64,000 bases of DNA from an uncultured Pseudomonadales bacterium. Its GTDB lineage: Bacteria > Patescibacteriota > Microgenomatia > UBA1400 > MFAQ01. A program made the position numbers and the translations under genes. Each line of letters opens with the position of its first letter. The first letter of the stretch is position 1. The notes beneath the pieces are model-generated. The model did no database searches. It was not told where the DNA came from and worked only from the letters and a program-made list of their open reading frames with translations. Below, piece after piece: positions 28,186 to 64,000 of this stretch. The stretch is from assembly GCA_964564895.1 (NCBI GenBank), contig CAZMCB010000001.1, positions 19,689 to 83,688 of the forward strand, written 5' to 3'.

Positions 28186-28267
28186 GGTTAAGATTGATTA
28201 TATCGCTTGGAGATGTTTTGGGTGGAGAGGATTTGATTTCGGGTATTGTTTGGTGTTAAATGAATGT

Positions 28268-28606: not shown

Positions 28607-28633
28607 ATATATCTTTTATGATATATTAACTTT

Positions 28634-28924
28634 ATGAGAAAACTAAAATTATTTTCTGACCTATTTAAAGAGATGTTGCAAGATCCCGAATTCAAAAAGG
28701 AGTGGGAGAAGCTAGAACCTCAGTATCAACTTGAACACGAAATTATTAAGGCGAGAATTGAAAGCAAATTGACTCAAGAGGAATTGGCTAAAAAAATGGA
28801 TACTACTCAAGCAGCAATTTCCCGAATTGAGTCTGGCTCAGTAAGCCCTTCAATTAATACCGTCAATAGAATCGCGATGGCTTTCGGGAAGAAATTGGAA
28901 ATTAGATTTGTGTCGCCTGATTAA
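28634..28924 (+). CDS. XRE-family HTH antitoxin (HigA-like)
   Basis: LTQEELAKKMDTTQAAISRIESGSVSPSINTVNRIAMAFGKKLEI is a classic HTH_3/XRE domain. It lies 27 nt downstream of the toxin, in toxin-then-antitoxin (HigBA) order. Confidence 0.75.
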   Translation: MRKLKLFSDLFKEMLQDPEFKKEWEKLEPQYQLEHEIIKARIESKLTQEELAKKMDTTQAAISRIESGSVSPSINTVNRIAMAFGKKLEIRFVSPD

Positions 28925-46372: not shown

Positions 46373-47818
46373 TTATTTTTCAAATCGATAAAGATATAAG
46401 GGGTATTCACTAACCCTCCACATATTGGTTATTGTACTGCCTTTGAATGACTCTATCTCCCATGCTTGGTCGTTTCTAAGGACCTCTGGGTCTTCGGTTG
46501 CAGAAACTACATACAAGACCTCACTTTGAGGGAATTTATCAAAGGGGTATAGAGTCATGCCATTTATAAGAGCCATGTCACGAAAACGTTGACCATAGAG
46601 ATTAGAGTCTGGACTAGCTAGTGCAGCTACGTTGGTCTTGGGATTTTGTTCTAATATAATATGTTTTGTGACGTTTCTAACCGCCTCTATGTCTCCTTGC
46701 CATGTGTAGCTTTTGAGAAGATTTACGGCGCTATTTAGGCTAATGACTAGTAGTATTCCAAGTATTATTTTGCCGTAGATATTTTTATAAAGGGAGAAGA
46801 AACGCAGAAAGAATAATATCGCTAGAGGCACTTGAGCATACTGATAATGGGGATAAGTAACAGTAACAAAACCAAAGAAAATAAAGGAGACAAGAAGTGA
46901 GAGGAAGGAGTAACTTAGATATTTGTCTTTTCTGTGGACCAAGAATATCCCGACGAAAATTAAAAAGAAAATTATGGTGACAAAAAGATTATTTGGAACG
47001 AAGTAATTTGAAAAGACAACTAAAGAGTTCCAGAGCCTCTCAAAAAAGCCAGCAAAAGAAAGAGACATAAATGATTTTTCATTGGCTGAAAGGAAGGCCG
47101 TAGAGTTAAAGAAAAAATGATTCTTCATCTCGAATAATACAAAGGGGATGATGGCGAAAGAGAAACCGAGTAGTGTGAGGAAGATTTTTTTGATGGCTCC
47201 TTTGGTTCCTTTGTAAAGAAGTGGAAGAAAAATAATAATCGGTAATACCACGATTGCCGCTAAATAATGATGATAAAGAGCAGCACCTAGTGATAGACCT
47301 CCAAGAAAAACGAGAATCGGATTTTTAAACGATAGTGAGAAAACAAAAACACTTAACCAAAAGATAATGGGGTTTGGATTCCAAGCCCATCTGGAGGCAA
47401 CCATGACTGGCGAAAGGCTAGCAATTAGCAAAGATAGAAACAATGCTTTTTTGGTTTTTCCAAATGTTTTTACTATCACAATTGTTAGAAGTAACCAACC
47501 AAGTACACCATAGAACGCGGCCATGTAGGCAGGCCCTAAGGGATCAAAATTTGTAAGAACTGTAGCGGGCATGTACATGTAGTAACTTAGCGATGGGAAC
47601 ATTTCCAGTCTGTCTTCGGAAATAGGACCAACAAAAGTAATTTGTTTGAGATCCCAGATACGATGCATATCAACTAGAGCTCTGGACTCATCCCAGATAA
47701 AACGAGAGTTTTTTTCGAGATTGTAGGTATAAAGAAAAACAACTAAAAAACCTAAAACAAAAAAGAGCCAGTATTTTTTTATAAAGGAAATTATTTTGTT
47801 CATTTTTCTTTTTGCCAT
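46373..47818 (-). CDS. Polytopic membrane protein, PMT_2/ArnT-like GT-C
   Basis: 481 aa. IWDESRALVDM is an acidic first loop. About 12 TM helices. Confidence 0.5.
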   Translation of the reverse strand: MAKRKMNKIISFIKKYWLFFVLGFLVVFLYTYNLEKNSRFIWDESRALVDMHRIWDLKQITFVGPISEDRLEMFPSLSYYMYMPATVLTNFDPLGPAYMAAFYGVLGWLLLTIVIVKTFGKTKKALFLSLLIASLSPVMVASRWAWNPNPIIFWLSVFVFSLSFKNPILVFLGGLSLGAALYHHYLAAIVVLPIIIFLPLLYKGTKGAIKKIFLTLLGFSFAIIPFVLFEMKNHFFFNSTAFLSANEKSFMSLSFAGFFERLWNSLVVFSNYFVPNNLFVTIIFFLIFVGIFLVHRKDKYLSYSFLSLLVSFIFFGFVTVTYPHYQYAQVPLAILFFLRFFSLYKNIYGKIILGILLVISLNSAVNLLKSYTWQGDIEAVRNVTKHIILEQNPKTNVAALASPDSNLYGQRFRDMALINGMTLYPFDKFPQSEVLYVVSATEDPEVLRNDQAWEIESFKGSTITNMWRVSEYPLYLYRFEK

Positions 47819-48621
47819 TCCTCTAGCAGATCTTGATCAACTTTTTTGTATGTATCAGATAGCGATGGTTTTCTCTGAGCTTCCCAAAGACGCTCGTAGG
47901 TCAAGAACTTACTGAACATCTGGTAGATAATCTCTATCCAGCCTTCGGTACCATCTCGCCATAGCCCCTGCTTTACTGCACGATACCAAAACTCGGTGAG
48001 CATAATGCGGATAAAGCGCCAACCTTTCATGGGAGGATGACCAGCATCAAGAAGCATCTGGGCTTCCATCTTTGACCACTTCATCGTATTAGGTACTTTT
48101 TCATCGATGTTTTTGTGGGAAAGATGAACCATCTGATGACGCAGATCACCTATGGGACCCACGATCTTAGGCTGCTCATGAAGCTTACCTTCCCAGCGCT
48201 TAAGGGCGGTCTTTTTCATGAGACGCAGGACTCTCGGATCTCCCCAGTGATTAAGGTGTTTGCCTAAAAATATTTCGTAGCGACTAATGGTGTAGGCCTG
48301 GAACTGTGGTTCTTCTATTGTGGCCATTATTTCCCTCGCGAGCTTAACAGGAATGCGTTCATCCGAGTCGAGGTATAGCAACCATTCTCCTTTGGCTTCT
48401 TTGGCACCGCTATTGCGCCATTTGGAAAAACTATCCCCCGTTTCATGAACAACTTTGGCACCTAATTTGAGACAAATATCGACTGTGTTGTCTGTGGAGC
48501 CAGTATCGACGACAATGACCTCTGAGACGAACTGTGAGGTCTTGATCGCTGGTATTATTTCGTCTGCAACATTTTTGGCAAGGATAATGATGGATAGTTT
48601 TTTCATATTTTTTTGATCCAC
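47800..48621 (-). CDS. GT2 family glycosyltransferase
   Basis: LSIIILAKNVADEIIPAIKTS...VIVVDTGSTDNT and LDSDE are GT-A motifs. Confidence 0.75.
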   Translation of the reverse strand: MDQKNMKKLSIIILAKNVADEIIPAIKTSQFVSEVIVVDTGSTDNTVDICLKLGAKVVHETGDSFSKWRNSGAKEAKGEWLLYLDSDERIPVKLAREIMATIEEPQFQAYTISRYEIFLGKHLNHWGDPRVLRLMKKTALKRWEGKLHEQPKIVGPIGDLRHQMVHLSHKNIDEKVPNTMKWSKMEAQMLLDAGHPPMKGWRFIRIMLTEFWYRAVKQGLWRDGTEGWIEIIYQMFSKFLTYERLWEAQRKPSLSDTYKKVDQDLLEEWQKEK

Positions 48622-49783: not shown

Positions 49784-50701
49784 CTATTTAGTCAGCTTGC
49801 GGCGGAGCTTGAGGAGGAAGCGTTTGGCTTTGGAGGGCTGGTCTTGGATGAGGACGGTGAGATACCAGTACTGAAGCTCTTTGAATTTTTCTAGGAAAAG
49901 CTTTTGCCAGATGGGAGTGAGGTAGCCGGGGCGTTTTGGTTCGTGACCTTCGGCCTGCCAGACCTTGAGATAGACAAGCATGATCGAAAACATCTGCAAG
50001 AAAGCCAAGACTAGTCCGTGCAAGCCATCCTTGTAGCCATCGCCAGCAAAGAAGCGACTGATAAATTCACTGATTGGTTTGCCAATAAGATCCTTAACGT
50101 CGAATTTGTAGCCAGAGTTTTGCAACTCTTTGGCTTGCTGAGTGGAGTAGCGAAGAGCTCTCTCAAAATACTCGTCTATAGAGTTGTAATGAAAATGCTC
50201 GATGGCTAAAGATTCCTCAGCTTCTAAATTGATACCGGTTCCTGAAGTGATTGGAATTGAGTGAATTTCATTTTGCCATTCTACGGCTCCTTTTTTGAAA
50301 AATCTGATGTTGTAATCTGGCCACCAACGAGAATGCTCGGTCCATTGACCAAAGATAATATTTTTTCTTGGTACCCTTACAAAATCTACTTTATCTTCTT
50401 CGGTAATTTCGATAAGTTTTTTGGCTAGAGACTTGGGAATTCGCTCGTCGGCGTCAAGTATTAGTACCCAGTTACCAACGGCTTTACTGATAGCAAAGTT
50501 TCTTGCTGGCTCGACGTAACCAACCATTTTATGGTCGTAGATTTTATCAGTGTATTTTTTGGCGATATTGACGGTGTCATCAGCAGATTCCATATCAACA
50601 ACGATTATTTCATCAGCGAACTGGAGTGACTCGAGACAAGCAGCAATATTTTTTTCTTCGTTTCTGGTGTTTATTACTGCTGAGATATTTATTTTGGACA
50701 T
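49784..50701 (-). CDS. GT2 family glycosyltransferase
   Basis: ISAVINTRNEEKNIAACLESL...IIVVDMESADDT and LDADE are GT-A motifs. Confidence 0.75.
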   Translation of the reverse strand: MSKINISAVINTRNEEKNIAACLESLQFADEIIVVDMESADDTVNIAKKYTDKIYDHKMVGYVEPARNFAISKAVGNWVLILDADERIPKSLAKKLIEITEEDKVDFVRVPRKNIIFGQWTEHSRWWPDYNIRFFKKGAVEWQNEIHSIPITSGTGINLEAEESLAIEHFHYNSIDEYFERALRYSTQQAKELQNSGYKFDVKDLIGKPISEFISRFFAGDGYKDGLHGLVLAFLQMFSIMLVYLKVWQAEGHEPKRPGYLTPIWQKLFLEKFKELQYWYLTVLIQDQPSKAKRFLLKLRRKLTK

Positions 50702-50702
50702 A

Positions 50703-53700
50703 TTAAAGAGTTTTGTAGATATTAATTTCGGCTGATTCGAAAATTCTGACCATAGGCATAGAACACGGACTGAGTCTCATTAGATTGAGAGGTGTCTCGT
50801 ATATATATTTTATTTCATTTTTTGCAAGAAAGTTTTTTGCCCAGTCTAGATCAGTCGTGTTATAGAAACGCTGGATATCTTTTGCCCTTTGCTGATAGTT
50901 GTAACCAGTGATATCAAGGTTTATGGTATCGGAAAGGAACTCTGGCTGGCCAGAGAGAGCAGAGATGTAAGCTGTGGAGTTGTAAGCATATAGTGGTTTG
51001 GGGGGAAGAATATGACCAGCTAATTGATTGTCAAAGTATGGGGCCAAGACAACTCCTTTTGGTTGAGTCTTTAAAAATTCTAGAGCACGAAGCTCGGTGT
51101 AACTCACCCTTGAGGATGGCTTGAAACTAGTGTGTTCTCCGATTGAACCAATGGTGGTTAAAAGCGTACAAAGAACTAACAATACAATCATCAATATTTT
51201 GACAAAACGAGAATGTATTTTATTTATATAAAACATTACTCCCCTGCCGGCAAAGAGACCAAAAACAAATAACGAGTAATACATAAACTGAATACTGTTC
51301 CAAGGATTGTACTTTTGGGTAAGAATCATAGGGATTAAAATGCCAACTAGAGAGATAGCTATAAGTATTCTCTGAGAGAGGAAAGAGTTTTTGCCTTTTA
51401 TTATTTGCCAAACTCCAAAGAGACGAGTGCCAATATTGCCAATGAGGAAAACTATTACTCCGAGAAGATTAACTATTAATAATTTTATGGTTGATCCCGT
51501 GGCTTCATAAGCTTGCCAAGCATTGGCGACCTTTTCAAAGTTTAATCTGTCGCTTGAAGCAAACATGCTCTTGATAAACCAGAAGGGAGAAAATTCAAAT
51601 GGGAAACCAGCAGATGAGCTAAAAGGTAACGTAATGAGAACCCCTAACAATCCGATTAATATAAGGAACAACCATTGACCAGTTAACAAAAGACCGGCAG
51701 AGAGAAGGATGAATGCATAAACCTTTGTCTGCGCCAGAAGACCTCCAAAAAACACAATTCCAGCAAACTTTAGAGTGCTTTTCTTCTCAAAGTATTTTTC
51801 AAGAAGGAAAAGAGTGACAAGCAAAAAGAGAACTGAGAGAGCATACGGTGGATTAAGGAAAATGGAAAAAGATTGATTTGCCCAGAAGGCAGATTCACCA
51901 CCAAAAATGCTATTTCCGGAAAGAAGTGATGGAAGGAATCCGAGAGATCCCGCAAGGTAGACAAATAATAAGGAAATTATTATTTCTATCTCTTTGAACT
52001 TCCATAGTCTTAGGAGCTTGATGATGAAAAAAGTAAGGAGAATGGCTATCACTAGAGGCAAAAAGAAAAAGAATATTTGAGATGATGGAATATGTGTAAA
52101 TCGAACCAAAAGACCGGCAAAATAATCAAAAACAAAATGATAATTCCCCAACTTCTCCCCTGCCAACTGAGGGTGAGATAAAGATAGAGGATTTTCGGCT
52201 ATCTTTTCGATGAGTGAGAGGTGAAAGACTGCATCATGAGAGTTTGAACCCCAGTAACCCAGTCCAAAGGGGTAAAGCTTGCTATCTTTGTAGACTGCAA
52301 TTAAGGGAATTAGTGAAATTAGTGATCCAATTCCAAAAGTTTTGTTTATCAAAAAACAAAAAATTATGACAAGTAAAACAATTGTAATTTGAAAAATCGG
52401 TTTTGAAAATAGAGATGTAAAAGGAGTCTTTGGGGCAACAGTCCAAGCCACCTCGTTTTTCTTTGTTGTTTCTTTAATGTTTTTAAAGTCTGTGTGCGGT
52501 ACAGCAATATTTGAGAAAGTTATCGTTTTTGGAGTAAGGGCTATTTTTTTGTCTCCATTTACTAAGGCGATATTCCAAATATCACTTTTTTCATCATAAA
52601 GAGTCTCGTACTTTTCTAAATCAATGTTTAAAGCGAGAGCGGTTTCTGGATTTTTGACCGAGTCAATCTCGGCTGGAATTTCGGCGGAAATTCCGTAGTA
52701 TTGATTTGGAGTGGCAATATAGTCTTCGTAAATTTCACGATTGTATACTCTGAAGTCAATTATCTTTGTTTGGCCATTTTGAGCCTTTAGGCCTAAGCGA
52801 TAAAAGGGGGTTTGGTACCATATCACTTCACCAGGTTCGTTACTTGTGGGGTCTGCGGTGCGGTAAAAATACACTGGGCTGCTTTCCGGATATAGAGATT
52901 TCATCCAGTCACCAAAATATTCTAAGCTTACAAAACGAATATTATATTTTTCCTGATTGGCTTTTATGGTGGAGTAAATATGTCTTATTTCTGGAAGATA
53001 ATCTCCGGTAAGAACATCATTTTCTAGACCGATATTGATATATGTAAATTTATTTAGATCTTTTTGAGTGTAAAGCGCGAAAACATGATCAAAAAAACTC
53101 GATGATTGGCCAACCATTTGATACTCATTTGGCTGTATCGAATAAAGGGAAGTCCTTTCGGGATTAATTATATTGAAAAGATCTCGTTGGGCGAAACGCA
53201 CAACTGGAATATTGACTCGATTTTTGAAACTCTCGGCTGGAATAAGTGAGTTATTTTTGTCTGGGAAATATGGACTTCCGATATAGCCTCCCCAAAGTCT
53301 TGTACCTCTCATCTGATATTGATCATCAAGAATCATAGCAGTCTGAACAGAGTATTTAGTTTTTAGATAATCGAGAGAAAAACTATCAAGATGCCAAGCC
53401 CCGACAGTGCGAGGGAAGAAACCAAAACGCTCCTTAAACGAGCTCATAAAAGCATCAATGATAAGAAGTCTTTGATCTGGTGTGTATCCTGAAAGGAAGG
53501 TTTCATTAATACCGCCTCCTGAATAAATATTCACCTTTTGGGTTAGCTTGGGAGTAACTTCGAGCAAGCCCCCTAGTGAAACTAACTTATCTGGACCAAT
53601 TAGTTCGCTGAAAAAAGCAGAAATTGTGGCGTCATTTACAGCATCAAAACGAAGTAGCCATGTGGATGGTAAACCAGAATGAGAGGACTCTTCATATAAT

Positions 53701-53864
53701 TTAATTGGAATATCTAAAGGTTTTTGAGTTTTACTTAGCCATCCTTCGGATCCCCTGACAGGATTAGTAAGGGTGACGAAAGTAGGACCGGTATATGCCA
53801 GAGACTTAATTGGAAAAATAAAAAAGAAAAATATTGATAGAAATAAAAATAGCTTCTTAATCAT
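50703..53864 (-). CDS. Giant fusion protein: signal peptide, ~480-aa extracytoplasmic domain (possible carbohydrate-active/esterase-like fold), then a ~570-aa polytopic GT-C-like membrane domain
   Basis: 1053 aa. The N-terminus MIKKLFLFLSIFFFFIFPIKSLA is a signal peptide. A hydrophilic stretch runs to about residue 490, followed by about 14 TM helices and a ~150-aa C-terminal tail. Confidence 0.5.
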   Translation of the reverse strand: MIKKLFLFLSIFFFFIFPIKSLAYTGPTFVTLTNPVRGSEGWLSKTQKPLDIPIKLYEESSHSGLPSTWLLRFDAVNDATISAFFSELIGPDKLVSLGGLLEVTPKLTQKVNIYSGGGINETFLSGYTPDQRLLIIDAFMSSFKERFGFFPRTVGAWHLDSFSLDYLKTKYSVQTAMILDDQYQMRGTRLWGGYIGSPYFPDKNNSLIPAESFKNRVNIPVVRFAQRDLFNIINPERTSLYSIQPNEYQMVGQSSSFFDHVFALYTQKDLNKFTYINIGLENDVLTGDYLPEIRHIYSTIKANQEKYNIRFVSLEYFGDWMKSLYPESSPVYFYRTADPTSNEPGEVIWYQTPFYRLGLKAQNGQTKIIDFRVYNREIYEDYIATPNQYYGISAEIPAEIDSVKNPETALALNIDLEKYETLYDEKSDIWNIALVNGDKKIALTPKTITFSNIAVPHTDFKNIKETTKKNEVAWTVAPKTPFTSLFSKPIFQITIVLLVIIFCFLINKTFGIGSLISLIPLIAVYKDSKLYPFGLGYWGSNSHDAVFHLSLIEKIAENPLSLSHPQLAGEKLGNYHFVFDYFAGLLVRFTHIPSSQIFFFFLPLVIAILLTFFIIKLLRLWKFKEIEIIISLLFVYLAGSLGFLPSLLSGNSIFGGESAFWANQSFSIFLNPPYALSVLFLLVTLFLLEKYFEKKSTLKFAGIVFFGGLLAQTKVYAFILLSAGLLLTGQWLFLILIGLLGVLITLPFSSSAGFPFEFSPFWFIKSMFASSDRLNFEKVANAWQAYEATGSTIKLLIVNLLGVIVFLIGNIGTRLFGVWQIIKGKNSFLSQRILIAISLVGILIPMILTQKYNPWNSIQFMYYSLFVFGLFAGRGVMFYINKIHSRFVKILMIVLLVLCTLLTTIGSIGEHTSFKPSSRVSYTELRALEFLKTQPKGVVLAPYFDNQLAGHILPPKPLYAYNSTAYISALSGQPEFLSDTINLDITGYNYQQRAKDIQRFYNTTDLDWAKNFLAKNEIKYIYETPLNLMRLSPCSMPMVRIFESAEINIYKTL

Positions 53865-55368
53865 GTTTTAGTCGAAAGTAACTGAGAGTATCTTTGATAA
53901 AAGATTTTCCCTCAACTAGAATAATTGTTCCAAAATAGACACTAGCTGAAATTAAACCAATAATTATTAGTCGAGTGAAAGAGTTTCCGTATTGAATCGT
54001 AAATACTAAAAATGAAGACATCAAAAATGTTGCTGCCAATGGAGTTTTTAGAATGTTTAATAAATTGAAGTGAACATATTTTCTTGCCAAAAGAATGGTC
54101 ACGAAAGAAGAAGTGGCAATGATAGCGACTGCATATGAAACTCCAAGGTACCCAAATTTAAGAGATAAGAATGGCATGGTAAGCCATGTAAGACCGGTCC
54201 ACATAAGCATTAGTTTGAAGGTGGACTTGATGTGACCTGTTGCGTTTAAAAGGTTGGTGAGACTAGTGGAAATACTCGCCCAAGCGGAGTTGTATAGATA
54301 AATATACAAAGGAATTAAAGCGGGAAGCCATTTGGCATATTTAGGAATCAGGTTTACTAGAGGTAAGGCAAAAAATCCCATACCAACCAAAATTGGGAAG
54401 GCAGCCAGACACATGTATTTCAGGCTGACCTCTACGGCTCTTGCGAGTCTATCTTTATCATGTTGGAGTCTTGCGAAAGTTGGGAAACTAACTTTTGTGA
54501 GGTTGTCCATGACAATTCTTAATGGGAGACCAGCCCAACGACTTGCCCAGCCGATATAACCCAGACCTGTTGTTCCGATTATCCTTGTAAGAATAATCGT
54601 CATGCCGTCGTCTTTTAGTACAGCAAGGAATGTATTGGCTTGATATGGAAGACCAAAACGAAGGAGAGATTTTAATGATTCTTTGTAGATACCAATTACT
54701 GGCTTCCAAGGATAGACAATATACATCGTGATAAGTCCAACGAAACCTCTAGCTAGGACGGCAAAAGAAAAGGAGGATACGCCGAAACCTTTCCAAGCAA
54801 AATATACGGCTACTACATTGAAAGCTAAGGTTTCAAGTATCTGAGGAAGAATTAGTTTATTAAACTTGATTTCTCTCTCGAGCATGATTGAAGGAATTGT
54901 TTTGAGCGAACTAAGGAAAAGTGAAATACCCATGGCATAGAGAAGATACATACCTGACTGGTCAATGTTGTATTGGGTACGGATTAAAGATCTTAGTAAA
55001 AACAAAACCAAAAGAAGTAAAAATACTAAAATTTGCTGAATGGTGAAAGTAGTTGCCAAGTCTTTTTTGGTGATGGCTTCCTTTTTTTGAATAAGGGCTG
55101 CAGCAAGACCAATATCTGAGAAATATGCCAAGAAATTTACAACTGAAGAAACTAGATAAAATATTCCGTATATATTTGGATCAAGAAAGATTGTGAGGGC
55201 GAGCGTTGCAAGAAAAGTTATTATCTGAACAATAAAGGTTCTAGATATTAGAGCCAAAACACCAGACACGGATCGACGTTTTATTTCGTTTACCTCCATA
55301 GAGACTCCTGGTTCAGCGACGTTTTCCACGAATTTGAAGTTTTGATTGTTTGATAATAAGGAAGACAA
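53857..55368 (-). CDS. Wzx-like flippase / polysaccharide biosynthesis protein (MOP superfamily)
   Basis: RRSVSGVLALISRTFIVQIITFLATLALTIFLDPNIYGIFYLVSSVVNFLAYFSDIGLAAALIQKK is a canonical Wzx N-terminal block. About 12-14 TM helices. The alternative start at 55299 (MEVNEIKRR) avoids overlap with the upstream gene. Confidence 0.65.
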   Translation of the reverse strand: MSSLLSNNQNFKFVENVAEPGVSMEVNEIKRRSVSGVLALISRTFIVQIITFLATLALTIFLDPNIYGIFYLVSSVVNFLAYFSDIGLAAALIQKKEAITKKDLATTFTIQQILVFLLLLVLFLLRSLIRTQYNIDQSGMYLLYAMGISLFLSSLKTIPSIMLEREIKFNKLILPQILETLAFNVVAVYFAWKGFGVSSFSFAVLARGFVGLITMYIVYPWKPVIGIYKESLKSLLRFGLPYQANTFLAVLKDDGMTIILTRIIGTTGLGYIGWASRWAGLPLRIVMDNLTKVSFPTFARLQHDKDRLARAVEVSLKYMCLAAFPILVGMGFFALPLVNLIPKYAKWLPALIPLYIYLYNSAWASISTSLTNLLNATGHIKSTFKLMLMWTGLTWLTMPFLSLKFGYLGVSYAVAIIATSSFVTILLARKYVHFNLLNILKTPLAATFLMSSFLVFTIQYGNSFTRLIIIGLISASVYFGTIILVEGKSFIKDTLSYFRLKHD

Positions 55369-57019
55369 TAGAAATCCAAGCTACTAATGAAATTATATTG
55401 GATATTCGACGAACGGGAGTGTCTAGGTATTTAATGGTAAGGAAGTGGTCCCCTGCTGGGACAAAGACTTTCATAGCACCGTACTGATCGAGAATTACGT
55501 CAACTGGCTTGTTGTCTATAGAAATATCCCAGCCCGGATAATAGAAGACATTTATATTGATGAAGCTATCGATGTCTGAGCTTATGCTTGCTTTGGTGTT
55601 GAAAGGATTGGAATCAGTGATGTTTATTTGTGCAGCTTGAAGAATCGATGTCACTCTGGCGCTGGGAACATCTGTGGGTCTTGTTGCATTAACTGGCAGG
55701 GGCATGTAGTTTTCGGTGTAATCAAGATATTCCGAGGAGACTTTTTCACCTGATTGAAGGACCTGATTAGGTAAGTATCTTCTTAAGAAATAATTATCGG
55801 GAGTGGCGGTAATTTCTCCTGGGCGAAAGTAGGCGACGGTAAGAGAAAATGAGGCAATTATTATTATCGAAGAAAAAATTGCTAAAAGTTTTCCGGAAAT
55901 ATTTTTTATGAAAAATACAAAGAGAACGGCTGAGAGAATAGTGGTAATAGAAAGTAATCTCCAAGGGAACTGTATGGCGTTGGTAAAGGGAAAAATATTC
56001 CAGATAAATGAGGACCTGATATTCATCATAAAAATAACAAAGAAGGTGGCGAGGATTGTGGCTATCAAGTATCCTTTTTCTGCTTTTTTATTTCTTACAG
56101 ACTTAATGATTAATAAAACAATAGCTGCAAGAAGTACGACCAAATTTACTATGCCAATTTGGAAAGACATATCATCATATGGTCCCCAGTTTGAAGCTCC
56201 ATAACCCCATGGTGAGTATATTAGTTGCCAGATAAAGGGGAAATGATCGTAAAGATTGAAAGGAAGAACTTCTTTGATAAAACCTTTTTCAGCAAAAACT
56301 GGAATCAAATAATATGAGGTGAGGAGAAAGGATGAAAAAAGACCAGCAAAAACACTTAATATAAATTTGTAATTTCTACGAAGAAGCTCGACCAAGAAAT
56401 AAATGCCAACTAATATTGGTAGCCCAAAAGCGGTAGACGGTTGATGGGAAAGGATAAGTAAAGAAACTGAAATGCCTAAAAGTAGGATATTTTTTAGATT
56501 TTGTTTTTCTTTTAGCCTAGCTAGACTGTATAAAATCCAAGGGAAAATGGCTAAAGCAAAGGACTCTCCGATTGTGCCTCTGACATAAACATCAATCGCT
56601 CTATAAGGGGTATAGGTGTAAAGAACGGCAGCGGCTAAAGAGGCAAAAGAAGTGGTGTATTTTTTGGCAAAAAGATACATACCAAATGCGCCAATGAAAA
56701 GAGATAAGGCTAAAGTAAGAGTGTAAGAATAAAAAAGTGAAAAGCCGACCTTATTAAATAGGTATCCTATGTAATATGGAAGCTGATAATTGAACTCTGG
56801 ATATGGAGAGCCATAAGTAAAATGAACATCCAAAGCCCAACGTGGAGGAAACTGGCCCAGATCAATGGTTTGGATATACTGATGGAGATTTACTATCTGA
56901 GATTCATCGTGGAAAGTAAAACTAAAAGGAGTAACTAGCTTGATGGCAGCCGGAATAATTGCCAGAATCAAAAGAATGGGAATAATTTTGGATAGTTTAT
57001 CGAGTATTTTTTTTATCAT
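55313..57019 (-). CDS. Polytopic membrane protein, HDD...PxRW...GYGxPxFNYY...PYY family (paralog A), putative GT-C
   Basis: FTFHDESQIVNL...FPPRWALDVHFTYGSPYPEFNYQLPYYIGYLFN. 568 aa with a C-terminal soluble domain. Confidence 0.5.
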   Translation of the reverse strand: MIKKILDKLSKIIPILLILAIIPAAIKLVTPFSFTFHDESQIVNLHQYIQTIDLGQFPPRWALDVHFTYGSPYPEFNYQLPYYIGYLFNKVGFSLFYSYTLTLALSLFIGAFGMYLFAKKYTTSFASLAAAVLYTYTPYRAIDVYVRGTIGESFALAIFPWILYSLARLKEKQNLKNILLLGISVSLLILSHQPSTAFGLPILVGIYFLVELLRRNYKFILSVFAGLFSSFLLTSYYLIPVFAEKGFIKEVLPFNLYDHFPFIWQLIYSPWGYGASNWGPYDDMSFQIGIVNLVVLLAAIVLLIIKSVRNKKAEKGYLIATILATFFVIFMMNIRSSFIWNIFPFTNAIQFPWRLLSITTILSAVLFVFFIKNISGKLLAIFSSIIIIASFSLTVAYFRPGEITATPDNYFLRRYLPNQVLQSGEKVSSEYLDYTENYMPLPVNATRPTDVPSARVTSILQAAQINITDSNPFNTKASISSDIDSFININVFYYPGWDISIDNKPVDVILDQYGAMKVFVPAGDHFLTIKYLDTPVRRISNIISLVAWISIVFLIIKQSKLQIRGKRR

Positions 57020-58697
57020 GTGGAGCTACGGCAATAACTAAACTCAATAATAACGAAATAAAAGTAATGATGTTTGCTACTTCTCTCGTGCGGGTATTTT
57101 CAAAGTACCCTTGGACTAGTGTAATACCTTTATCAAAAGTAAGTGTGATTTCTCCATGGTCTTCCCCAATCTGATATACCGTGGGTGTAACACTGCTGTT
57201 TAAATACACTTTCCAGTCTGGAAAGGCTGAGATGGGGAATGAAACCGTTGCCTGACCAAAAGAAACATCTACGTCTGCTGAAAAATAAGCTGATCTTTTC
57301 TGGAAATTTTTTACTTCTGCTAATCCGGAAAGTACTACTGGATTGCTTGGAGCTATCTTTTCGGGAACGGAGACCATAGATAAAGGACGATAATCAAAGA
57401 AGGCAGATTTTTGGCTTTGTTCGAACACTTTTCCTGATAGATAAGTTTCGTCTGTAGCACTTGGACTAGACTTATCAAACTTGAAGAAACGAAAATTTAG
57501 AAATAACAAAGCAAAAACGAGAAGTAGGGTGAGTAGTTTTTGAGTTTTTTGTCCGAATGAGCTAATAAAAATGGCCAAAACTACAGCGGAGCTAAGCGCA
57601 ACTAAGCCTAAAAATCTCCAAGGGAACTGGACGAAAGATAGAGGTGCAATTAGCTCCCAAATAGCGATAGATCTTATGGTTGTGAGGAAAATAGCAAAAA
57701 GGGCAAAACAAAAAAATGTAATTAAGAGAATTTTGGAGGTTTTTGAAAGTGACTTTCTTTTGATAAATAAAAATATCGGTGTAACGACTAAAGCTAACGT
57801 CTGAACTATACCAACAGCAAAAGAGATCTTGTCGTTTGGACCAAACTCACTGGCACGATATCCCCAACTTTGTTTGATAAACAGTTGAGATAGAGTAGCA
57901 AAATGAGCTCGAAAATCAAAATAACCACTAGTAAGGAATCCGGTATCTACCAAGTTATTTTCGAAAATTACTGGTAGTAAGAAAAATGAGGCAATACCTA
58001 AACCAAGCACAGCAGAACTAAAAAGTAGTGAAAAAGATTTGATTTTTTGTTTGTTTATAAAAATCATGATGATGGCAAATACGGCGATGAAGGGGGAAGA
58101 AATTAAAGTGGTGATGTTGTGAGTACTAAGGAAAAGACCTAGGATTAGCGAGAGAAAAGCAAGATTAATTTTGGTTTTGTTGATAATTAATTTTGTGATT
58201 CCGAATAGAACTAACGGCAATAGTGCCAGAGCGAAATTTTCGGCGAGAGCTCCCCTTACAAAAATTTCAAGAGCACGAAAAGGAACCAAAATATAGGCAA
58301 CCCCTCCAATGAAGCTTGGCAGAATTGGAACAAACTGTGAAAGGAATATAAACATGGCGATTCCAGCAAGAGCTATCGAAATAAACATGACTATTTTGAC
58401 TGAATCAATTAGAGAAAAACCAAGATTGTTAAAAATTGCACCGACGTAATATGGAGTGGCAGAGTAATAGTTAAACATGGGTTGACCGTATCCATAACTC
58501 ATGTCTGGGGACCAACGACAAGGAATTTGACCATCATTTAGGCAACGTTTCATTTCGTAAAGTCGCATAACTTGTAAGTCGTCGTGCATAGAGAAAAAGC
58601 CTGGTTTGAAAATATTCCAAGAAACTAAAACGGAAATTAATAGCAGGCCGATGATGGCAATTAACTTTTTATTCATGTTTTCTTTTGAAGATGGCAT
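56997..58697 (-). CDS. Polytopic membrane protein, same family (paralog B)
   Basis: FFSMHDDLQVMRLYEMKRCLNDGQIPCRWSPDMSYGYGQPMFNYYSATPYYVGAIFN. Confidence 0.5.
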   Translation of the reverse strand: MPSSKENMNKKLIAIIGLLLISVLVSWNIFKPGFFSMHDDLQVMRLYEMKRCLNDGQIPCRWSPDMSYGYGQPMFNYYSATPYYVGAIFNNLGFSLIDSVKIVMFISIALAGIAMFIFLSQFVPILPSFIGGVAYILVPFRALEIFVRGALAENFALALLPLVLFGITKLIINKTKINLAFLSLILGLFLSTHNITTLISSPFIAVFAIIMIFINKQKIKSFSLLFSSAVLGLGIASFFLLPVIFENNLVDTGFLTSGYFDFRAHFATLSQLFIKQSWGYRASEFGPNDKISFAVGIVQTLALVVTPIFLFIKRKSLSKTSKILLITFFCFALFAIFLTTIRSIAIWELIAPLSFVQFPWRFLGLVALSSAVVLAIFISSFGQKTQKLLTLLLVFALLFLNFRFFKFDKSSPSATDETYLSGKVFEQSQKSAFFDYRPLSMVSVPEKIAPSNPVVLSGLAEVKNFQKRSAYFSADVDVSFGQATVSFPISAFPDWKVYLNSSVTPTVYQIGEDHGEITLTFDKGITLVQGYFENTRTREVANIITFISLLLSLVIAVAPHDKKNTR

Positions 58698-60405
58698 AAA
58701 GGCAAAGTGGAAGAAAAATAATTGTCAGGATATTTCCAACAAGACGAACTGGTGAGTTTGTAAGACGAGCATAGATTTGGTGTTCTCCTTTTGGAACTTT
58801 GAAAGTAATTAAGCCTAACTCATTGTTGTGATCTATGGCAACCTTTTTGCCGTCGACTTTGACTACCCAACCTGGAAAATCAAAAAGAGATAGAGTAACA
58901 GTGGTGTCTTCTGAGTTTTGTAGTGTAAAGCGTTGCCAGTTTGTCCCTTTAGTGAAGAAAAGAAAATCAGCAAAACCATTGGATACTACCGGAAGGTTTG
59001 GTGCGGGGCTGGTGGGTGGATGAGAAGCAAAAATTGGGAGGTAGTCGTAGATACTTGTGGTCATCTGTTTGTCCCAAGTGATTCCGGAGTATTTTTCTTC
59101 AATTGTTATATTGAACCATTTTGAAGGAGTGAAAAAAGAGAGATTTAGAAGCACTAAAAAGATAATCGTTGTTCCAATGATTATTAACGATTGCTTTGTC
59201 TTTTGACCTACTAGGATAGAGCCTGCGATTACGGCAAAAAAAGTATTTGCCAGTACTAAAAAGCGCCATGGGAATTGAAGGTATACAAGAGGAGTGGCTA
59301 TTGTCCAGATAAAGGAAGATTTTTCGTGGGTCATGAAGGAAGTAAAAAGACCAAGAATAAAAAATGTTAGAACAATAGAGAATATTTTTTTATCTTTTCG
59401 AGCGTATTTGAGAAAAGCAATAACTAAAGCTGTAAGTACAAAAATAATGATAATAGGCCCAAAGAAAAAAGATAGATCATCATGAGGACCAATAACTGAT
59501 GAGCCAACTCCCCAAAAAGTTGAGGTAAATAGCTGACTGATGGATACGAAATGTGCCCGATAATCAAAGTATCCTCCTAACATTGTTTCTGTGTGAGCAA
59601 ATTGTTTTTCCAGTACTACGGGCAGGAAGAAGAAAGCAGCAATAAGTCCTCCCCAGACTAGTGATAGACCAAATTTGAATATATGAACTAGCGTTGTTTT
59701 GTTGATTCTGAGCTTGTCGTATTGAAAAAGAAAAACTAAAAACAATATCACTAATGCTGGAGAAAAAATGAGGGTGCTTATATTGTGACTTAGTATTAGT
59801 AAACCGAAAGAAAGAGCTAGTAAAGCTGATTTTTTTATGGTGAACTCTTTGGCTAGATTGTATGAAGCAAGAATTACAAGAGGAATAAACACAAAGGCCC
59901 ATGACTCACCCATAGCACCACGAGAGTAAAGATCGGATGCTCGATATGGAGCATAAGCATAGATTAGCGCCGATAATACTCCACCCCACCTACCCCAAAG
60001 TCTATTTCCGAGCAAAAACATAGCTAAATTTCCAAGTATCAGGGAAAGAATAAAACCCAATTTGACTGAATCAAAAACACCAACCCCCAAAAGATTCGCA
60101 GCGGCCATGACGTAATAACTAAATGGTCCGTAGTAATTAAACTGAGGATAACCGTAGGCATAACCCATGCTAGGTACCCACCGACAAGGAATCTGAAAAT
60201 CTTTGATGCACTTGACCATCTCGGTCACACGGATTGCTTGCATATCATCGTGCATGGCGAATGTACCGGGCCTAAAAAGAGAGGTGACAGTAGGAAGAGT
60301 AAGAACAACAACTAAGAAAGGCAATAACCATTGCTTGTTTTTTAGGAAAAAATTTTTTAAGCGATCCTTAATACTCATAGAATTGCAGAGCCTCCGCGGT
60401 GCCAT
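58669..60405 (-). CDS. Polytopic membrane protein, same family (paralog C)
   Basis: TFAMHDDMQAIRVTEMVKCIKDFQIPCRWVPSMGYAYGYPQFNYYGPFSYYVMAAAN. Confidence 0.5.
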   Translation of the reverse strand: MAPRRLCNSMSIKDRLKNFFLKNKQWLLPFLVVVLTLPTVTSLFRPGTFAMHDDMQAIRVTEMVKCIKDFQIPCRWVPSMGYAYGYPQFNYYGPFSYYVMAAANLLGVGVFDSVKLGFILSLILGNLAMFLLGNRLWGRWGGVLSALIYAYAPYRASDLYSRGAMGESWAFVFIPLVILASYNLAKEFTIKKSALLALSFGLLILSHNISTLIFSPALVILFLVFLFQYDKLRINKTTLVHIFKFGLSLVWGGLIAAFFFLPVVLEKQFAHTETMLGGYFDYRAHFVSISQLFTSTFWGVGSSVIGPHDDLSFFFGPIIIIFVLTALVIAFLKYARKDKKIFSIVLTFFILGLFTSFMTHEKSSFIWTIATPLVYLQFPWRFLVLANTFFAVIAGSILVGQKTKQSLIIIGTTIIFLVLLNLSFFTPSKWFNITIEEKYSGITWDKQMTTSIYDYLPIFASHPPTSPAPNLPVVSNGFADFLFFTKGTNWQRFTLQNSEDTTVTLSLFDFPGWVVKVDGKKVAIDHNNELGLITFKVPKGEHQIYARLTNSPVRLVGNILTIIFLPLCLYAIFKRKHE

Positions 60406-61867
60406 CTATCCTAGCCGGCTTGGGATATTCTTTGATTAATTTCAAACGTTCCACAATTGAAGGCTGCATGTGATTTCTGGATTTGTTGATTACAAAGTAT
60501 CTTTTGTTTTTTGGATCTGTGTTTACTAAACCTTCAGGAATAGTGATAATCGAAGGATTGGAACCGACGATGGTGATATTGCTGTGACCGTTGGTGTAGA
60601 TTTGAAGGCCATCAGGAAGAGTACCAAAAAAACCTTCAGTAAAAACCACTACGTTCTCCCCTTTTGATTCTTGTTCGATTAAATATGCTGCAACTTCTTT
60701 TTGGCCCCAGCCTGCAGTCCATTCCTCAAGATACCCATTGCGCATATCGAAGGAAAGAGGGGCTTTGGTTGGTGTAAAAACACTAAGAATAGAAAAAACT
60801 AATGGCACAACTACAAGAATAAACGACGAAAGTTTAATTAGAATCCCTTTTCGAGTAACTAACCAGTTTAGGCCGATACTAATAATTGGTACAAGAGGTA
60901 AAACAGCAAACAATGCGTAACGACTGGTGTAAACCTTTGCAATGGAACCTTGGGCGACAAGAGGGAGAAGTGAAACCAACAGTAGAAAGAGCGATGTCAA
61001 ACGGGTTTTTTTGGGAATGAAGCCAAAAATTAGAGCAAGTAATAGTGTTGGTGAAAAAAGTAACCATAACCAGTTTATGGTTTTTGCTAAATTATTTAGA
61101 AGAGGGTCTAGTGGATGCCTTAGGATCTCTTGCCAAGTAAATAAATAGTCTTGATTTCGAGCTCCAATCATTTGGAATGCCGGCCCAAGACGAAGAATGC
61201 CATACATCAGCTGAGAAATTACGATAACTGCAAACAAACCTAGACAGAGATTAACGAAAGATTTTAGTTTGTCAGCTTTGGGGCGAAAAAAGAAAACTAA
61301 AGCGACCGCGAGCCAAGCGTAAAAGAAAATCGCGGGCGATTTTGTAAGAAGCCCTCCACCAAGAGCAAATCCTAAAATCATGGCGTGGTCGAGTTTTCTG
61401 GTTTTGGCAAAAAGAGCAGAAAGGCCAAGCGACCAAACACCAAACATGGCTAGCATTGAGTCTGCGAGTGCCATCCGATCGAAAAACACTGAAAATGGAA
61501 GTACCGAATACGTAAGAAGAGTAAGAGCGACAACAAGAAAATTTCCAAAAAGAACATACGAGAGAAAACCTAGACCTAACAGAGTACCAAAGCCTGTAGC
61601 TACGGAAACAAGGCGACCAGCAACCAATGGATCATCTGTTAGTTTAAAAAATGGAATAGTGGCCCACATAAAGAGTGGTTGTTTACCATCTGTTTGGGGT
61701 AAAAATCTAAGGCTCGCTTCGTTTTTCATGACCTGAGACCAGCGAATATAGATGGCTTCATCAACGAAAACAGGAATATTATTTAGCTTTGAGAGTCTTA
61801 AAAAAAAGAACAAGCCAAAAGCCAGAAGAGAAATAAGAATTATCCAGAATGTTTTATTTTTGATCAT
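60368..61867 (-). CDS. ArnT/PMT_2-like GT-C glycosyltransferase
   Basis: NNIPVFVDEAIYIRWSQ is a DE first-loop motif. The N-terminal 370 aa are polytopic and a C-terminal ~120-aa soluble domain follows. A 14-nt overlap links it to the upstream DPM1-like GT2. Confidence 0.6.
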   Translation of the reverse strand: MIKNKTFWIILISLLAFGLFFFLRLSKLNNIPVFVDEAIYIRWSQVMKNEASLRFLPQTDGKQPLFMWATIPFFKLTDDPLVAGRLVSVATGFGTLLGLGFLSYVLFGNFLVVALTLLTYSVLPFSVFFDRMALADSMLAMFGVWSLGLSALFAKTRKLDHAMILGFALGGGLLTKSPAIFFYAWLAVALVFFFRPKADKLKSFVNLCLGLFAVIVISQLMYGILRLGPAFQMIGARNQDYLFTWQEILRHPLDPLLNNLAKTINWLWLLFSPTLLLALIFGFIPKKTRLTSLFLLLVSLLPLVAQGSIAKVYTSRYALFAVLPLVPIISIGLNWLVTRKGILIKLSSFILVVVPLVFSILSVFTPTKAPLSFDMRNGYLEEWTAGWGQKEVAAYLIEQESKGENVVVFTEGFFGTLPDGLQIYTNGHSNITIVGSNPSIITIPEGLVNTDPKNKRYFVINKSRNHMQPSIVERLKLIKEYPKPARIDGTAEALQFYEY

Positions 61868-62615
61868 ACAATCCTTTTAGATCATTAATTTTGACGCTTA
61901 AAATTTGTTTTAACATGTCAGTTGATTCCTTGAAAAACCTTTTGTCCTTCCCTGTAGAGGTGTCTTCGTCTTTCCACTCAACATCGACTTCCTTTAAACG
62001 ATTGCCGTATTTTTCGGCTAAGAAAAGTAGTTCGACATCAAACGCAGAAACCGACCATCCCTTGGAGATTTTTTTATCTGACATAACGGAAAGTTTGGGA
62101 AAAATTTTCTTGGCGACTGCCGTATTAAAAGCTTTGAAGCCACACTGTGTATCGACAACATCACGGAGTAAGAATAAACCTCGTACAAAGCGAAAACCCC
62201 ACGAAGTGAGCTGACGGTACCAAGGAAAGTTGGCTCTGGCTTTGCCACGAGAACCAAAAACAACGGTGTAGCCTTCATCGAACCAAGGGAGTAGTTTTTC
62301 TACTTCTTTGAGAGGAGTTGATTGATCCATGTCGGTAAAAAGGACGATTTCACCTTTGGCAGCTTTTATGCCGGCGTAAACTGCTTTGGCCTTGCCACCA
62401 TGTGGATTAGGAAGGACTCTAAACCCCGAATGACTTCTGGCGAAAGTTTGCGCAATCTCTCGGCTGCCATCGGTAGAACCATCGTCACTGATGATCACTT
62501 CGTAGTCGTAGCTAACTTTTTTGAGATATGTGTAAACTTCTTCAAGAACTCCCCTATCAAGATTTTCTTTTTCGTTGAAGTTTGGGATGACAATCGATAG
62601 TTTTATTGCTGACAT
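61854..62615 (-). CDS. GT2 polyprenol-phosphate glycosyltransferase (DPM1/ArnC/GtrB-like)
   Basis: LSIVIPNFNEKENL...VIISDDGSTDGS...FTDMDQSTP are DPM1/ArnC-type motifs. 253 aa, soluble. Confidence 0.8.
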   Translation of the reverse strand: MSAIKLSIVIPNFNEKENLDRGVLEEVYTYLKKVSYDYEVIISDDGSTDGSREIAQTFARSHSGFRVLPNPHGGKAKAVYAGIKAAKGEIVLFTDMDQSTPLKEVEKLLPWFDEGYTVVFGSRGKARANFPWYRQLTSWGFRFVRGLFLLRDVVDTQCGFKAFNTAVAKKIFPKLSVMSDKKISKGWSVSAFDVELLFLAEKYGNRLKEVDVEWKDEDTSTGKDKRFFKESTDMLKQILSVKINDLKGLYDQK

Positions 62616-62618
62616 AGT

Positions 62619-63158
62619 TTATTTGAATACCTGGGCCTTGTAATATTTTAACTCATCTATCGACTCGAGAATGTCATCGTGAGCTCGATGAGTTTCTTCT
62701 TTGTGAAAGGCAGGAAGGGATGGATACCAACGAAGAGCTAGTTCTTTGATGGTGGTCACATCAATAATGCGATAGTGTACAAAGGCAGCAAGGCGAGGCA
62801 TATGTAGTCTTAAAAATTCACGATCAATATGAACTGAGTTTCCAGCTAATAAAGCCGTATTTGAAGGGCTGATTTTTTTGAGAAATTGGAGAGTTTGTTC
62901 CTCGGCTTCAGCTAAAGTGATTTTTGAGTCGTGTATTTCGTTTAGAAGGCCTGACTCGGCAAAGTGTTCTTGATTCCATGCAATCATGTTATTTAGAACT
63001 GAGCTTGGCTGGTTGATAACCAGATCAGGACCTTCGGCTAAAACATTTAATTCTCCGTCTGTCACTATCGTCGCAATCTCAACGATCTGATCTTTTTCAG
63101 GATTGAGCCCTGTCATTTCTAGATCTATCCAGATTAATTTTCCGTTGGTACTGCTCAT
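62619..63158 (-). CDS. orn: Oligoribonuclease (DEDDh 3'-5' exoribonuclease)
   Basis: LIWIDLEMTGLNPEKDQIVEIATIVTD is Exo motif I (DxE). GNSVHIDREFL is Exo II. YRIIDVTTIKEL...HRAHDDI is Exo III with the catalytic His. 179 aa. Confidence 0.85.
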   Translation of the reverse strand: MSSTNGKLIWIDLEMTGLNPEKDQIVEIATIVTDGELNVLAEGPDLVINQPSSVLNNMIAWNQEHFAESGLLNEIHDSKITLAEAEEQTLQFLKKISPSNTALLAGNSVHIDREFLRLHMPRLAAFVHYRIIDVTTIKELALRWYPSLPAFHKEETHRAHDDILESIDELKYYKAQVFK

Positions 63159-64000
63159 CTTGTGTGTTCTAGTTTGTATATTTTTAAGTAATCAATTTGC
63201 CATGTAGAAACAACGTGTGATGGTCCAAAAACTGCTATCTGCCAGTCTGGATTACCTTCAGGTTGACATTTTTCTCCGTCTTCACAGATGACGAAAAGCT
63301 GATCAACAATCTTGTCTTCCCCTCTTACTAGCTTGGCCTGTTTGTTTTCTAGGAAGTAGCGATAGGATTCATCGTAGTTATTTTTGGAAATCAGTCCAAA
63401 GTTAAACTCCTGCCCTTGGGATTCTTGAATAATAAGGTCGGCAGCTTGCTCTGTCCTTCTTAGCTGGTAATTGGGATTGCCGAAAGCTGGGCTGGTGCGA
63501 AGAGCATTGAAAACAAGAATAGCAAAGAGAGTGATAAATACCCATTTAAAAACCGGATTCATCTTAACTACCGACGAGAAGAGTGCTCCAGAAAGTAGAA
63601 AAACAGCTGGGTATACCAGTCCTAAGTAGTGAATATATATTGGCTGATTGTAAAGACTCAAGCCTAAAATGGTAAATAATATCCAAGAAGTAATAATCTG
63701 GATGGATGGTTTTTTGCGGTTTATCAGAATATAAAACGCTGAAATTGCACAAAGGATAATAGTAACGATCAATTTTGGTTTTTCATTTCCGGTGAGGAGA
63801 GAACTTTGGGTGAAAGAGAAAAGAGTAAAGGGCTTTGTGAGTGAGTCGGCGAGATTGAATACTCCGGACTTGGCTGAGAGCATCGCCTTAAGTGCAGAGA
63901 GATTCATACCAGAGTGCTTAAGATCAAAGAGAACCAAAGGAGACATGAAAGCTAAGAATATTAAAACGGCAAATATCGTGTGTTTTGTAAAAGATTTTGC
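63155..64000 (-). CDS. Membrane protein with a C-terminal soluble domain. The 5' end runs off the window end.
   Basis: The frame stays open upstream of the listed Met at 63946 (...HTIFAVLIFLAFMSPLVLF, inside a TM helix), so the gene probably starts beyond 64000. It has at least 4 TM helices and then a ~110-aa hydrophilic C-terminus. Confidence 0.45.
   Translation of the reverse strand, partial: AKSFTKHTIFAVLIFLAFMSPLVLFDLKHSGMNLSALKAMLSAKSGVFNLADSLTKPFTLFSFTQSSLLTGNEKPKLIVTIILCAISAFYILINRKKPSIQIITSWILFTILGLSLYNQPIYIHYLGLVYPAVFLLSGALFSSVVKMNPVFKWVFITLFAILVFNALRTSPAFGNPNYQLRRTEQAADLIIQESQGQEFNFGLISKNNYDESYRYFLENKQAKLVRGEDKIVDQLFVICEDGEKCQPEGNPDWQIAVFGPSHVVSTWQIDYLKIYKLEHTR

Follow-up and report, generated by a model that had tools for sequence, protein, structure and literature searches.

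We analysed a window of 64,000 nucleotides (nt) from an uncultured bacterium (NCBI GenBank assembly GCA_964564895.1, contig CAZMCB010000001.1, positions 19,689 to 83,688), whose homologs place it in the Microgenomates of the candidate phyla radiation (CPR). In three places of this window a gene for a glycosyltransferase of family 2 (GT2) overlaps a gene for a polytopic GT-C glycosyltransferase, and the members of these pairs are called here GT2-A and GT-C A, GT2-B and GT-C B, and GT2-C and GT-C C. We consider it probable that the window represents an envelope glycan island based on multi-component transmembrane glycosylation, in which GT2-A and GT2-B synthesize the lipid-linked sugar donors and GT2-C acts on the acceptor side. 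A first-pass annotation of the same DNA had deduced at least three different lipid-linked monosaccharide donors from the three pairs. This deduction fails because GT2-C belongs to another GT2 subfamily, and only two such donors are supported.

CPR bacteria (Patescibacteria) live as uncultured episymbionts on minimal genomes, and next to nothing is known about the chemistry of their surface. Their genomes are typically near 1 Mb, and the 64-kb window would amount to approximately 6% of a genome of this assumed size. Two of the three pairs look like ordinary bacterial systems for the loading and transfer of lipid-linked sugars, and the present case adds a CPR lineage to the known systems of multi-component transmembrane glycosylation. 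Given that the mechanism has already been described, the main result is that donors had been counted too high. The analysis also pinpoints the two enzymes that probably supply lipid-linked sugars, singles out two conserved modules, namely GT2-A with GT-C A and a triplet of PMT_2 genes with GT2-C, a GT4 gene and a short PMT_2 gene, and flags in GT2-C a conserved GT2 subfamily with a fixed association with the PMT_2 triplet.

Two of the three paired GT2s resemble polyprenyl-phosphate sugar synthases

The overlap of three GT2 genes lacking transmembrane (TM) helices with PMT_2/ArnT-like GT-C genes, as described in the first-pass annotation, was confirmed. It comprises 14 nt in pair A (tATGatcaaaaaTAA), where the end of the GT2 gene lies inside the start of the GT-C gene, and 4 nt each in pair B (GTGA) and pair C (ATGA). 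The GT2 gene is the upstream member of pair A, and the GT-C gene that of pairs B and C. PF00535 matched GT2-A, GT2-B and GT2-C with E-values of 6e-30, 5e-24 and 2e-18, respectively, and no TM helix was predicted in any of the three. Processive enzymes similar to cellulose or chitin synthases were rejected, given that the QxxRW motif is present in none of the nine GT2s of the window and that the paired GT2s are devoid of TM helices. The absence of this motif, the presence of which would have refuted the annotation, is in line with the latter, yet as a check it is too weak to separate DPM1-like enzymes from other non-processive GT2s.

GT2-A and GT2-B, and not GT2-C, combine a GT-A fold and a DxD motif with a position closest to solved structures of the DPMS/ArnC/GtrB clade. 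The former label of DPM1/ArnC-like enzymes is appropriate for two of the three GT2s. The best solved relatives of GT2-A by sequence in the PDB were PfDPMS, GtrB and ArnC, and ArnC and GtrB ranked second and third by structure. The acceptor phosphate of PfDPMS is bound by R117, R131 and S135, and the metal by D89xD91xQ93 (PMC5526996). In a HMMER alignment, R123, R134 and S138 of GT2-A fell on this triad and D95 and D97 on the DxD motif, and all five residues were invariant in 14 relatives. Many relatives of GT2-A carry the automated JGI name dolichyl-phosphate beta-glucosyltransferase, and the PgfS model was among its best NCBIfam matches, far below the cutoff. Apart from the translational coupling to GT-C A, no partner was identified that would anchor GT2-A, which has no TM helices of its own, to the membrane. 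A soluble synthase of the GpgS/MpgS type was also considered for GT2-A and found less likely, since those structures rank below the three polyprenyl-phosphate glycosyltransferases. Clues to the donor sugar were sought in the neighbourhoods of Chloroflexota orthologs of GT2-A; judged by N-terminal sequence, their genes look as if they encoded an RmlD-type reductase, other GT2s and a GDP-mannose dehydratase, and were uninformative.

The best PDB matches of GT2-B, which shares 31% identity with GT2-A along 180 amino acids (aa), were PfDPMS and then GtrB. GT2-B contains a DADGQH motif, and its R117 and R127 align with the acceptor-phosphate arginines of PfDPMS. The best NCBIfam model was PpgS, aligned over the full length, followed by AglJ, both far below cutoff (72 bits for PpgS versus an equivalog cutoff of 370 bits). 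A gene for a small DUF2304 protein with three TM helices lies downstream of the GT2-B ortholog in all seven relatives inspected, either directly or, in the window and in the two closest relatives (L169 and L170), behind a short gene similar to UDP-glucose dehydrogenase (UGDH) genes. It was reported that the DUF2304 protein GacJ binds and stimulates the GlcNAc-P-Und synthase GacI, that Rv3632 acts likewise on PpgS, and that transfer of the sugar then falls to the GT-C GacL (Rush et al.). Pair B thus combines a GacI/PpgS-type GT2 with a co-encoded DUF2304 protein as in the two-protein synthase GacI/GacJ, and because this GacJ/Rv3632-type protein is the constant partner of GT2-B, we regard pair B as a system of the GacI/GacJ/GacL type. 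The UGDH-like reading frame itself (20757-21614, minus strand; 285 aa) comprises the N-terminal and central domains of a UDP-glucose/GDP-mannose dehydrogenase-like protein without the C-terminal domain; two other relatives (L171 and L172) possess full-length versions of 430 aa.

The GT-C partners and their possible acceptors

All three GT-C partners are polytopic proteins with six to nine predicted TM helices that match PF13231 (PMT_2) above the gathering score and carry an acidic DE motif in the first loop, just after TM1 (VFVDEA, FNFDEE and LNADEA), which identifies them as PMT_2/ArnT-like. Single-sequence searches of the PDB with the three proteins yielded only noise, and a profile built from seven GT-C paralogs of the window was needed to reach ArnT (5ezm), the sole significant match, which at an E-value of 1.4e-3 is weak.

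We attribute a small chance to the possibility that the paired GT-Cs act as protein O-glycosyltransferases on surface proteins or pili, comparable to actinobacterial PMT or streptococcal PgfM, and not on a wall polysaccharide. Their Pfam family, the appearance of PgfS among the models closest to GT2-A, albeit far below cutoff, and the resemblance of GT2-C to the protein and peptide glycosyltransferases GmaR and SunS would fit such a function. However, the only structure recovered by the GT-C profile, weak as this match is, belongs to a lipid A glycosyltransferase, and the neighbouring genes (for Wzx, GT4, an acyltransferase and enzymes that modify sugar nucleotides) are those usually seen in polysaccharide assembly.

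GT2-C belongs to another subfamily

The closest matches of GT2-C were GmaR and SunS in sequence comparisons and SunS and WrtF in structural ones, while ArnC and DPMS came 19th and 21st. GT2-C could be aligned with GT2-A over only about 100 N-terminal residues, and the acceptor-phosphate triad of PfDPMS was not alignable; full-length alignments were obtained with its paralogs at 47800-48621 and 49784-50701 of the window. The likeness to SunS/GmaR/WrtF-type enzymes mainly concerns the nucleotide-binding half. In contrast to these, GT2-C has no TPR or peptide-binding domains and adjoins three PMT_2 GT-Cs, a context not described for those enzymes. Its C-terminal helical tail, 'GFLDGxxGF', may resemble that of the WaaE/LgtF group of beta-1,4-glucosyltransferases, which works on membrane-anchored acceptors. 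GT2-C probably acts on a membrane-bound acceptor, as an acceptor-building enzyme together with the GT4, and not as a DPMS-type synthase.

The genomic context of GT2-C was surveyed in 80 metagenome loci. A GT-C C ortholog was found directly upstream of GT2-C on the same strand in 51 of 69 loci, the PMT_2 triplet followed by GT2-C was kept in most of the 80, and the order PMT_2 - PMT_2 - PMT_2 - GT2-C - GT4 - short PMT_2 recurred down to 45% identity. Downstream of the GT2-C orthologs, a soluble open reading frame (ORF) of approximately 345 aa was followed by an ortholog of the short PMT_2 gene (29 of the 56 loci with two downstream genes). Approximately 30 of the 80 loci (L084-L157) harbour, at a distance of no more than 6 kb, a further GT2 of mostly 200-315 aa with GT2-A or GT2-B as its best match in the window. 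This suggests that the PMT_2-triplet module frequently includes a DPMS-like synthase, and it fits a donor that is provided by a DPMS-like enzyme rather than by GT2-C.

It appears quite unlikely, in view of these data, that GT2-C, like GT2-A and GT2-B, is a polyprenyl-phosphate monosaccharide synthase and that each of the three feeds its own overlapping GT-C with one of three distinct donors. The position of GT2-C directly behind GT-C C would be accounted for, as would the polytopic proteins adjoining its paralogs (47800-48621, minus strand, overlaps the PMT_2-like gene 46373-47818, minus strand, by 19 nt; 49784-50701 abuts 50703-53864), and the hydrophobic C-terminal helices suggest that GT2-C works at the membrane. 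However, GT2-C is similar to DPMS, ArnC and GtrB only in the generic nucleotide-binding half, the triad is not alignable, and a separate DPMS-like GT2 lies near many of the related loci. We would likewise bet against the more far-reaching idea that the GT2-C subfamily represents a second, structurally distinct class of polyprenyl-phosphate sugar synthases, or an obligate cytoplasmic partner, for PMT_2-type GT-Cs in CPR bacteria. If true, it would explain why GT2-C is fixed behind the PMT_2 triplet across Microgenomates and why its paralogs abut polytopic proteins. More broadly, much of the envelope glycan would then be assembled outside the membrane by at least 16 GT-Cs fed by very few lipid-linked monosaccharides, as is the case for arabinan and mannan in mycobacteria.

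Gene order in other genomes

Within the window, the three cassettes are not special, because 4.5 GT2/GT-C adjacencies are expected by chance for 9 GT2 and 13 GT-C genes among approximately 52 genes, and the probability of observing at least three is 0.88. At least two further overlapping pairs exist beyond A, B and C, namely the above-mentioned 47800-48621 with 46373-47818, and a GT2 (38116-38928, minus strand) that overlaps a GT87-type gene (36869-38119, minus strand) by 4 nt. Nearly every gene in these arrays overlaps its neighbour. The non-random signal is the conservation of gene order in other genomes and not the adjacency within the window.

Scanning one genome per species, we obtained 80 GT2-A loci, 45 of the Patescibacteria type and 35 from Chloroflexota or Acidobacteriota. 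A GT-C A ortholog was located no more than two genes downstream of the GT2-A ortholog and on the same strand in 30 of the 45 Patescibacteria-type loci; in 11 loci, a homolog of 29966-31120 sits between the two. Another GT-C is usually found upstream of GT2-A, and an ortholog of 58669-60405 follows that of GT-C A in many cases. Pair A is therefore a conserved Microgenomates module. The co-conservation across related genomes that had been proposed as a test is thus seen for pairs A and C, and for pair B the GT-C is retained in L169 only.

It is very unlikely that the adjacencies are incidental and the GT2s ordinary cytoplasmic polysaccharide enzymes in a dense, coupled operon with no tie between donor and transferase: the chance expectation, the overlaps of nearly all array genes, the loss of GT-C B beside GT2-B in most relatives and the Chloroflexota GT2-A orthologs without GT-C neighbours would agree with this, but the linkage of GT2-A to GT-C A and of GT2-C to the PMT_2 triplet across genomes is far from random, GT2-A and GT2-B specifically resemble the polyprenyl-phosphate glycosyltransferase clade, and PMT_2-type GT-Cs need donors of the kind that these two, as the only DPMS-like GT2s among the nine, would provide.

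Proposed mechanism and comparison with known systems

Our data show to which families and folds the proteins belong, which residues of the catalytic and acceptor sites are conserved and in which order the genes are kept, whereas the substrates, the flipping step, the acceptors and any physical GT2/GT-C complex are inferred. In the proposed island with two donor synthases, GT2-A and GT2-B would act as peripheral TM-less enzymes that transfer the sugar of a nucleotide diphosphate sugar to polyprenyl phosphate at the cytoplasmic face of the membrane. The sugar transferred by GT2-A is possibly glucose. GT2-B, together with the GacJ-like DUF2304 protein, would load a sugar for which the best model, the GalNAc-transferring PpgS, scored far below cutoff. 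The lipid-linked monosaccharide would then be flipped, and the Wzx-type protein of the pair A operon is one candidate flippase by analogy with GacK. Outside the membrane, the many GT-Cs of the PMT_2, PTPS_related, GT87 and YfhO types are predicted to use the lipid-linked sugar on wall polymer or protein acceptors, every GT-C presumably with its own acceptor or linkage. GT2-C, as a membrane-associating GT-A enzyme, most likely cooperates with the adjacent GT4 in the synthesis or modification of an acceptor that is lipid-linked or membrane-bound. The three neighbouring PMT_2 paralogs would then decorate this acceptor. The donor for this module may come from GT2-A and GT2-B, the latter being encoded downstream on the same strand. 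The two-step scheme of the first-pass annotation, with a GT2 for the charging of polyprenyl phosphate and a GT-C for the transfer of the sugar outside, is well supported for pairs A and B by homology, acceptor-phosphate residues and linkage to GT-C genes, in pair B also to the DUF2304 gene, and it is not supported for pair C. Since there are at least 16 GT-C-like genes for two DPMS-like synthases, the donors are shared and not dedicated to one cassette each.

Several observations weigh against this interpretation. The metal-binding glutamine is displaced by one residue in GT2-A (DMDQSTP versus DADLQH), and in GT2-B an asparagine (N131) takes the place of S135 of PfDPMS, so that the acceptor-phosphate site is matched only partly. 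No GT2 scored above a curated NCBIfam cutoff, and all equivalog scores were far below. The two AlphaFold2 models, built on shallow alignments, reach moderate confidence (pLDDT 74-78). In none of the 35 Chloroflexota/Acidobacteriota loci was a GT-C A ortholog located up to two genes downstream of the GT2-A ortholog. Among the seven relatives inspected for pair B, a GT-C B ortholog is located beside GT2-B only in the closest one (L169, 93%); the upstream gene, which overlaps by 4 nt, otherwise varies. In three relatives it encodes an unrelated protein of 511-544 aa with 5-10 TM helices, and its place is taken in the other three by a GT2, an MptE-like gene or a toxin-antitoxin pair that does not overlap. 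We regard the GT-C of pair B as the exchangeable, acceptor-specific part. No GtrA-type flippase was found in the window, and the role of Wzx is proposed by analogy only. The acceptor-side role of GT2-C is deduced by exclusion; its tight conservation with GT-C genes would fit a donor synthase as well, and the polytopic proteins adjoining all three members of its subfamily in the window are also compatible with such a role.

Among the known systems, GacI/GacJ/GacK/GacL of Streptococcus pyogenes and PpgS/Rv3632/Rv3779 of M. tuberculosis share with pair B a TM-less GT2 of the DPMS clade, a DUF2304 protein with three TM helices and a GT-C. Wzx-type genes are, in comparison with the Gac system, also part of the island. 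In contrast to both systems, the short UGDH-like gene separates GT2-B from DUF2304, and the GT-C overlaps GT2-B but varies between relatives. GT2-A can be compared with PfDPMS (5mlz), a type II DPM1 without TM helices, and with the Dol-P-glucose synthase of the ALG5 type; it differs from these in being bacterial with a presumably undecaprenyl-type carrier, in its motif (DMDQSTP, not DADLQH) and in that no DPM3-like partner was identified. As in ArnC/ArnT and GtrB/GtrA/Gtr(type), a GT2 would make the polyprenyl-phosphate sugar and a PMT_2/ArnT-like GT-C transfer it outside. However, the two C-terminal TM helices of ArnC and GtrB are absent from GT2-A and GT2-B, no flippase gene of the GtrA or ArnE/F type was seen in the window, and there are many GT-Cs per synthase.

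Multi-component transmembrane glycosylation has been reviewed, including the variant with a cytoplasmic GT-A enzyme, a separate TM protein, a Wzx-type flippase and a GT-C (PMC8035078). Genomes with several GT-A/GT-C pairs and a shared flippase are known from L. lactis (CsdAB/CD/EF) and B. subtilis (CsbB-YfhO, YkcBC and YkoST), and three such pairs in one genome have already been described (PMC8035078). Unlike in these genomes, only two DPMS-type GT2s here face the large set of GT-C-like genes within 64 kb. Literature searches returned no report that links CPR bacteria or Microgenomates to GT-C, ArnT or PMT.

Gene content of the island

The glycan-biosynthesis island fills the whole window (G+C approximately 36%); its main features are listed in Table 1. 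Besides the nine PF00535 GT2 genes, it contains 12 Pfam-supported GT-C-type genes (PMT_2, PTPS_related, GT87 and YfhO) and three more polytopic proteins assigned by local hhalign to GT87 (29966-31120) or PMT_2 (46373-47818 and 42089-43429); together with the fragment cut by the window end this gives at least 16 GT-C-like genes. The match of 46373-47818 was to the GT-C C family, with 96% hhalign probability. Further genes encode two Wzx-type proteins, four GT4s, methyltransferases, an aminotransferase, an epimerase/dehydratase, an acyltransferase and an asparagine synthase. GT2-A and GT2-C have relatives in Woesebacteria and Collierbacteria (85-89% identity), and the nearest named relatives of GT2-B belong to Shapirobacteria (70%).

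Table 1. Coordinates of the paired genes and their neighbours in the window
Feature	Position	Strand	Description
GT2-A	61854-62615	-	TM-less GT2 of the DPMS/ArnC/GtrB type; predicted synthase of a polyprenyl-phosphate hexose, possibly glucose
GT-C A	60368-61867	-	PMT_2/ArnT-like polytopic transferase; Pfam PMT_2, E 5e-8; about 9 TM helices
Three paralogous GT-C genes	58669-60405, 56997-58697, 55313-57019	-	Continuation of the pair A operon; Pfam PTPS_related, PMT_2, YfhO; 27-35% mutual identity
Wzx-type membrane protein (Polysacc_synt_3)	53857-55368	-	Pfam PF13440, E 6e-50; candidate flippase
GT-C fragment	63155-64000	-	C-terminal half of a GT-C of about 495 aa, cut by the window end; frame open to base 64000
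GT2-B	21619-22287	-	TM-less GacI/PpgS-type GT2; Pfam PF00535; predicted polyprenyl-phosphate (amino)sugar synthase
GT-C B	22284-23777	-	PMT_2-like transferase; Pfam PMT_2, E 5e-10; hhalign 96% to the GT-C C family
DUF2304 protein	20391-20738	-	Small protein with 3 TM helices; Pfam PF10066, E 3e-14; GacJ/Rv3632-like putative activator or anchor of GT2-B
GT2-C	31098-31970	-	TM-less GT2 of a SunS/GmaR/WrtF-like subfamily; hydrophobic C-terminal helical tail
PMT_2 triplet upstream of GT2-C (first member: GT-C C)	31967-33598, 33588-35198, 35195-36868	-	Paralogous GT-C genes; Pfam PMT_2, E 5e-11, 2e-11, 2e-8; 28-33% mutual identity
GT4	28902-29927	-	Pfam; downstream member of the pair C module
Short PMT_2 GT-C	27049-28185	-	Pfam; downstream member of the pair C module
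GT87-like polytopic protein	29966-31120	+	384 aa; convergent with GT2-C; no Pfam match; hhalign 96% to the GT87-type family of 36869-38119

The GT-C fragment at the right end of the window matches residues ~214-495 of polytopic ORFs of 495-498 aa that lie upstream of GT2-A orthologs (E 1e-89 to 1e-92). Wedged between this gene and GT2-A is an oligoribonuclease-like RNase_T gene (62619-63158, minus strand); two other loci (L003 and L004) have a similarly sized TM-less ORF (approximately 181 aa) in the same position.

No Pfam family was found at E<=1 for 29966-31120, 50703-53864, 23789-25975 and 46373-47818. Three large polytopic proteins of 1053, 728 and 637 aa with 10-13 predicted TM helices (50703-53864, 23789-25975 and 17333-19246, all on the minus strand) received no family from Pfam or from local profile comparison. 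The 728-aa protein is kept upstream of GT-C B in L169.

The G+C content is 0.31-0.36 between positions 4000 and 28000 and 0.37-0.41 between 28000 and 64000, and the left part has the appearance of a polysaccharide locus that is variable and may have been exchanged. A homolog of glutamine-dependent asparagine synthase (15437-17329, minus strand) inside the polysaccharide locus is kept in both L169 and L170; a possible substrate for its amidation is a sugar acid. Two small plus-strand ORFs (28031-28924) are inserted between the short PMT_2 gene and the GT4 gene. Given that the second (28634-28924) contains an XRE-type helix-turn-helix-like sequence, they probably form a toxin-antitoxin pair; in L170, a comparable position is occupied by a DUF433/DUF5615 pair.

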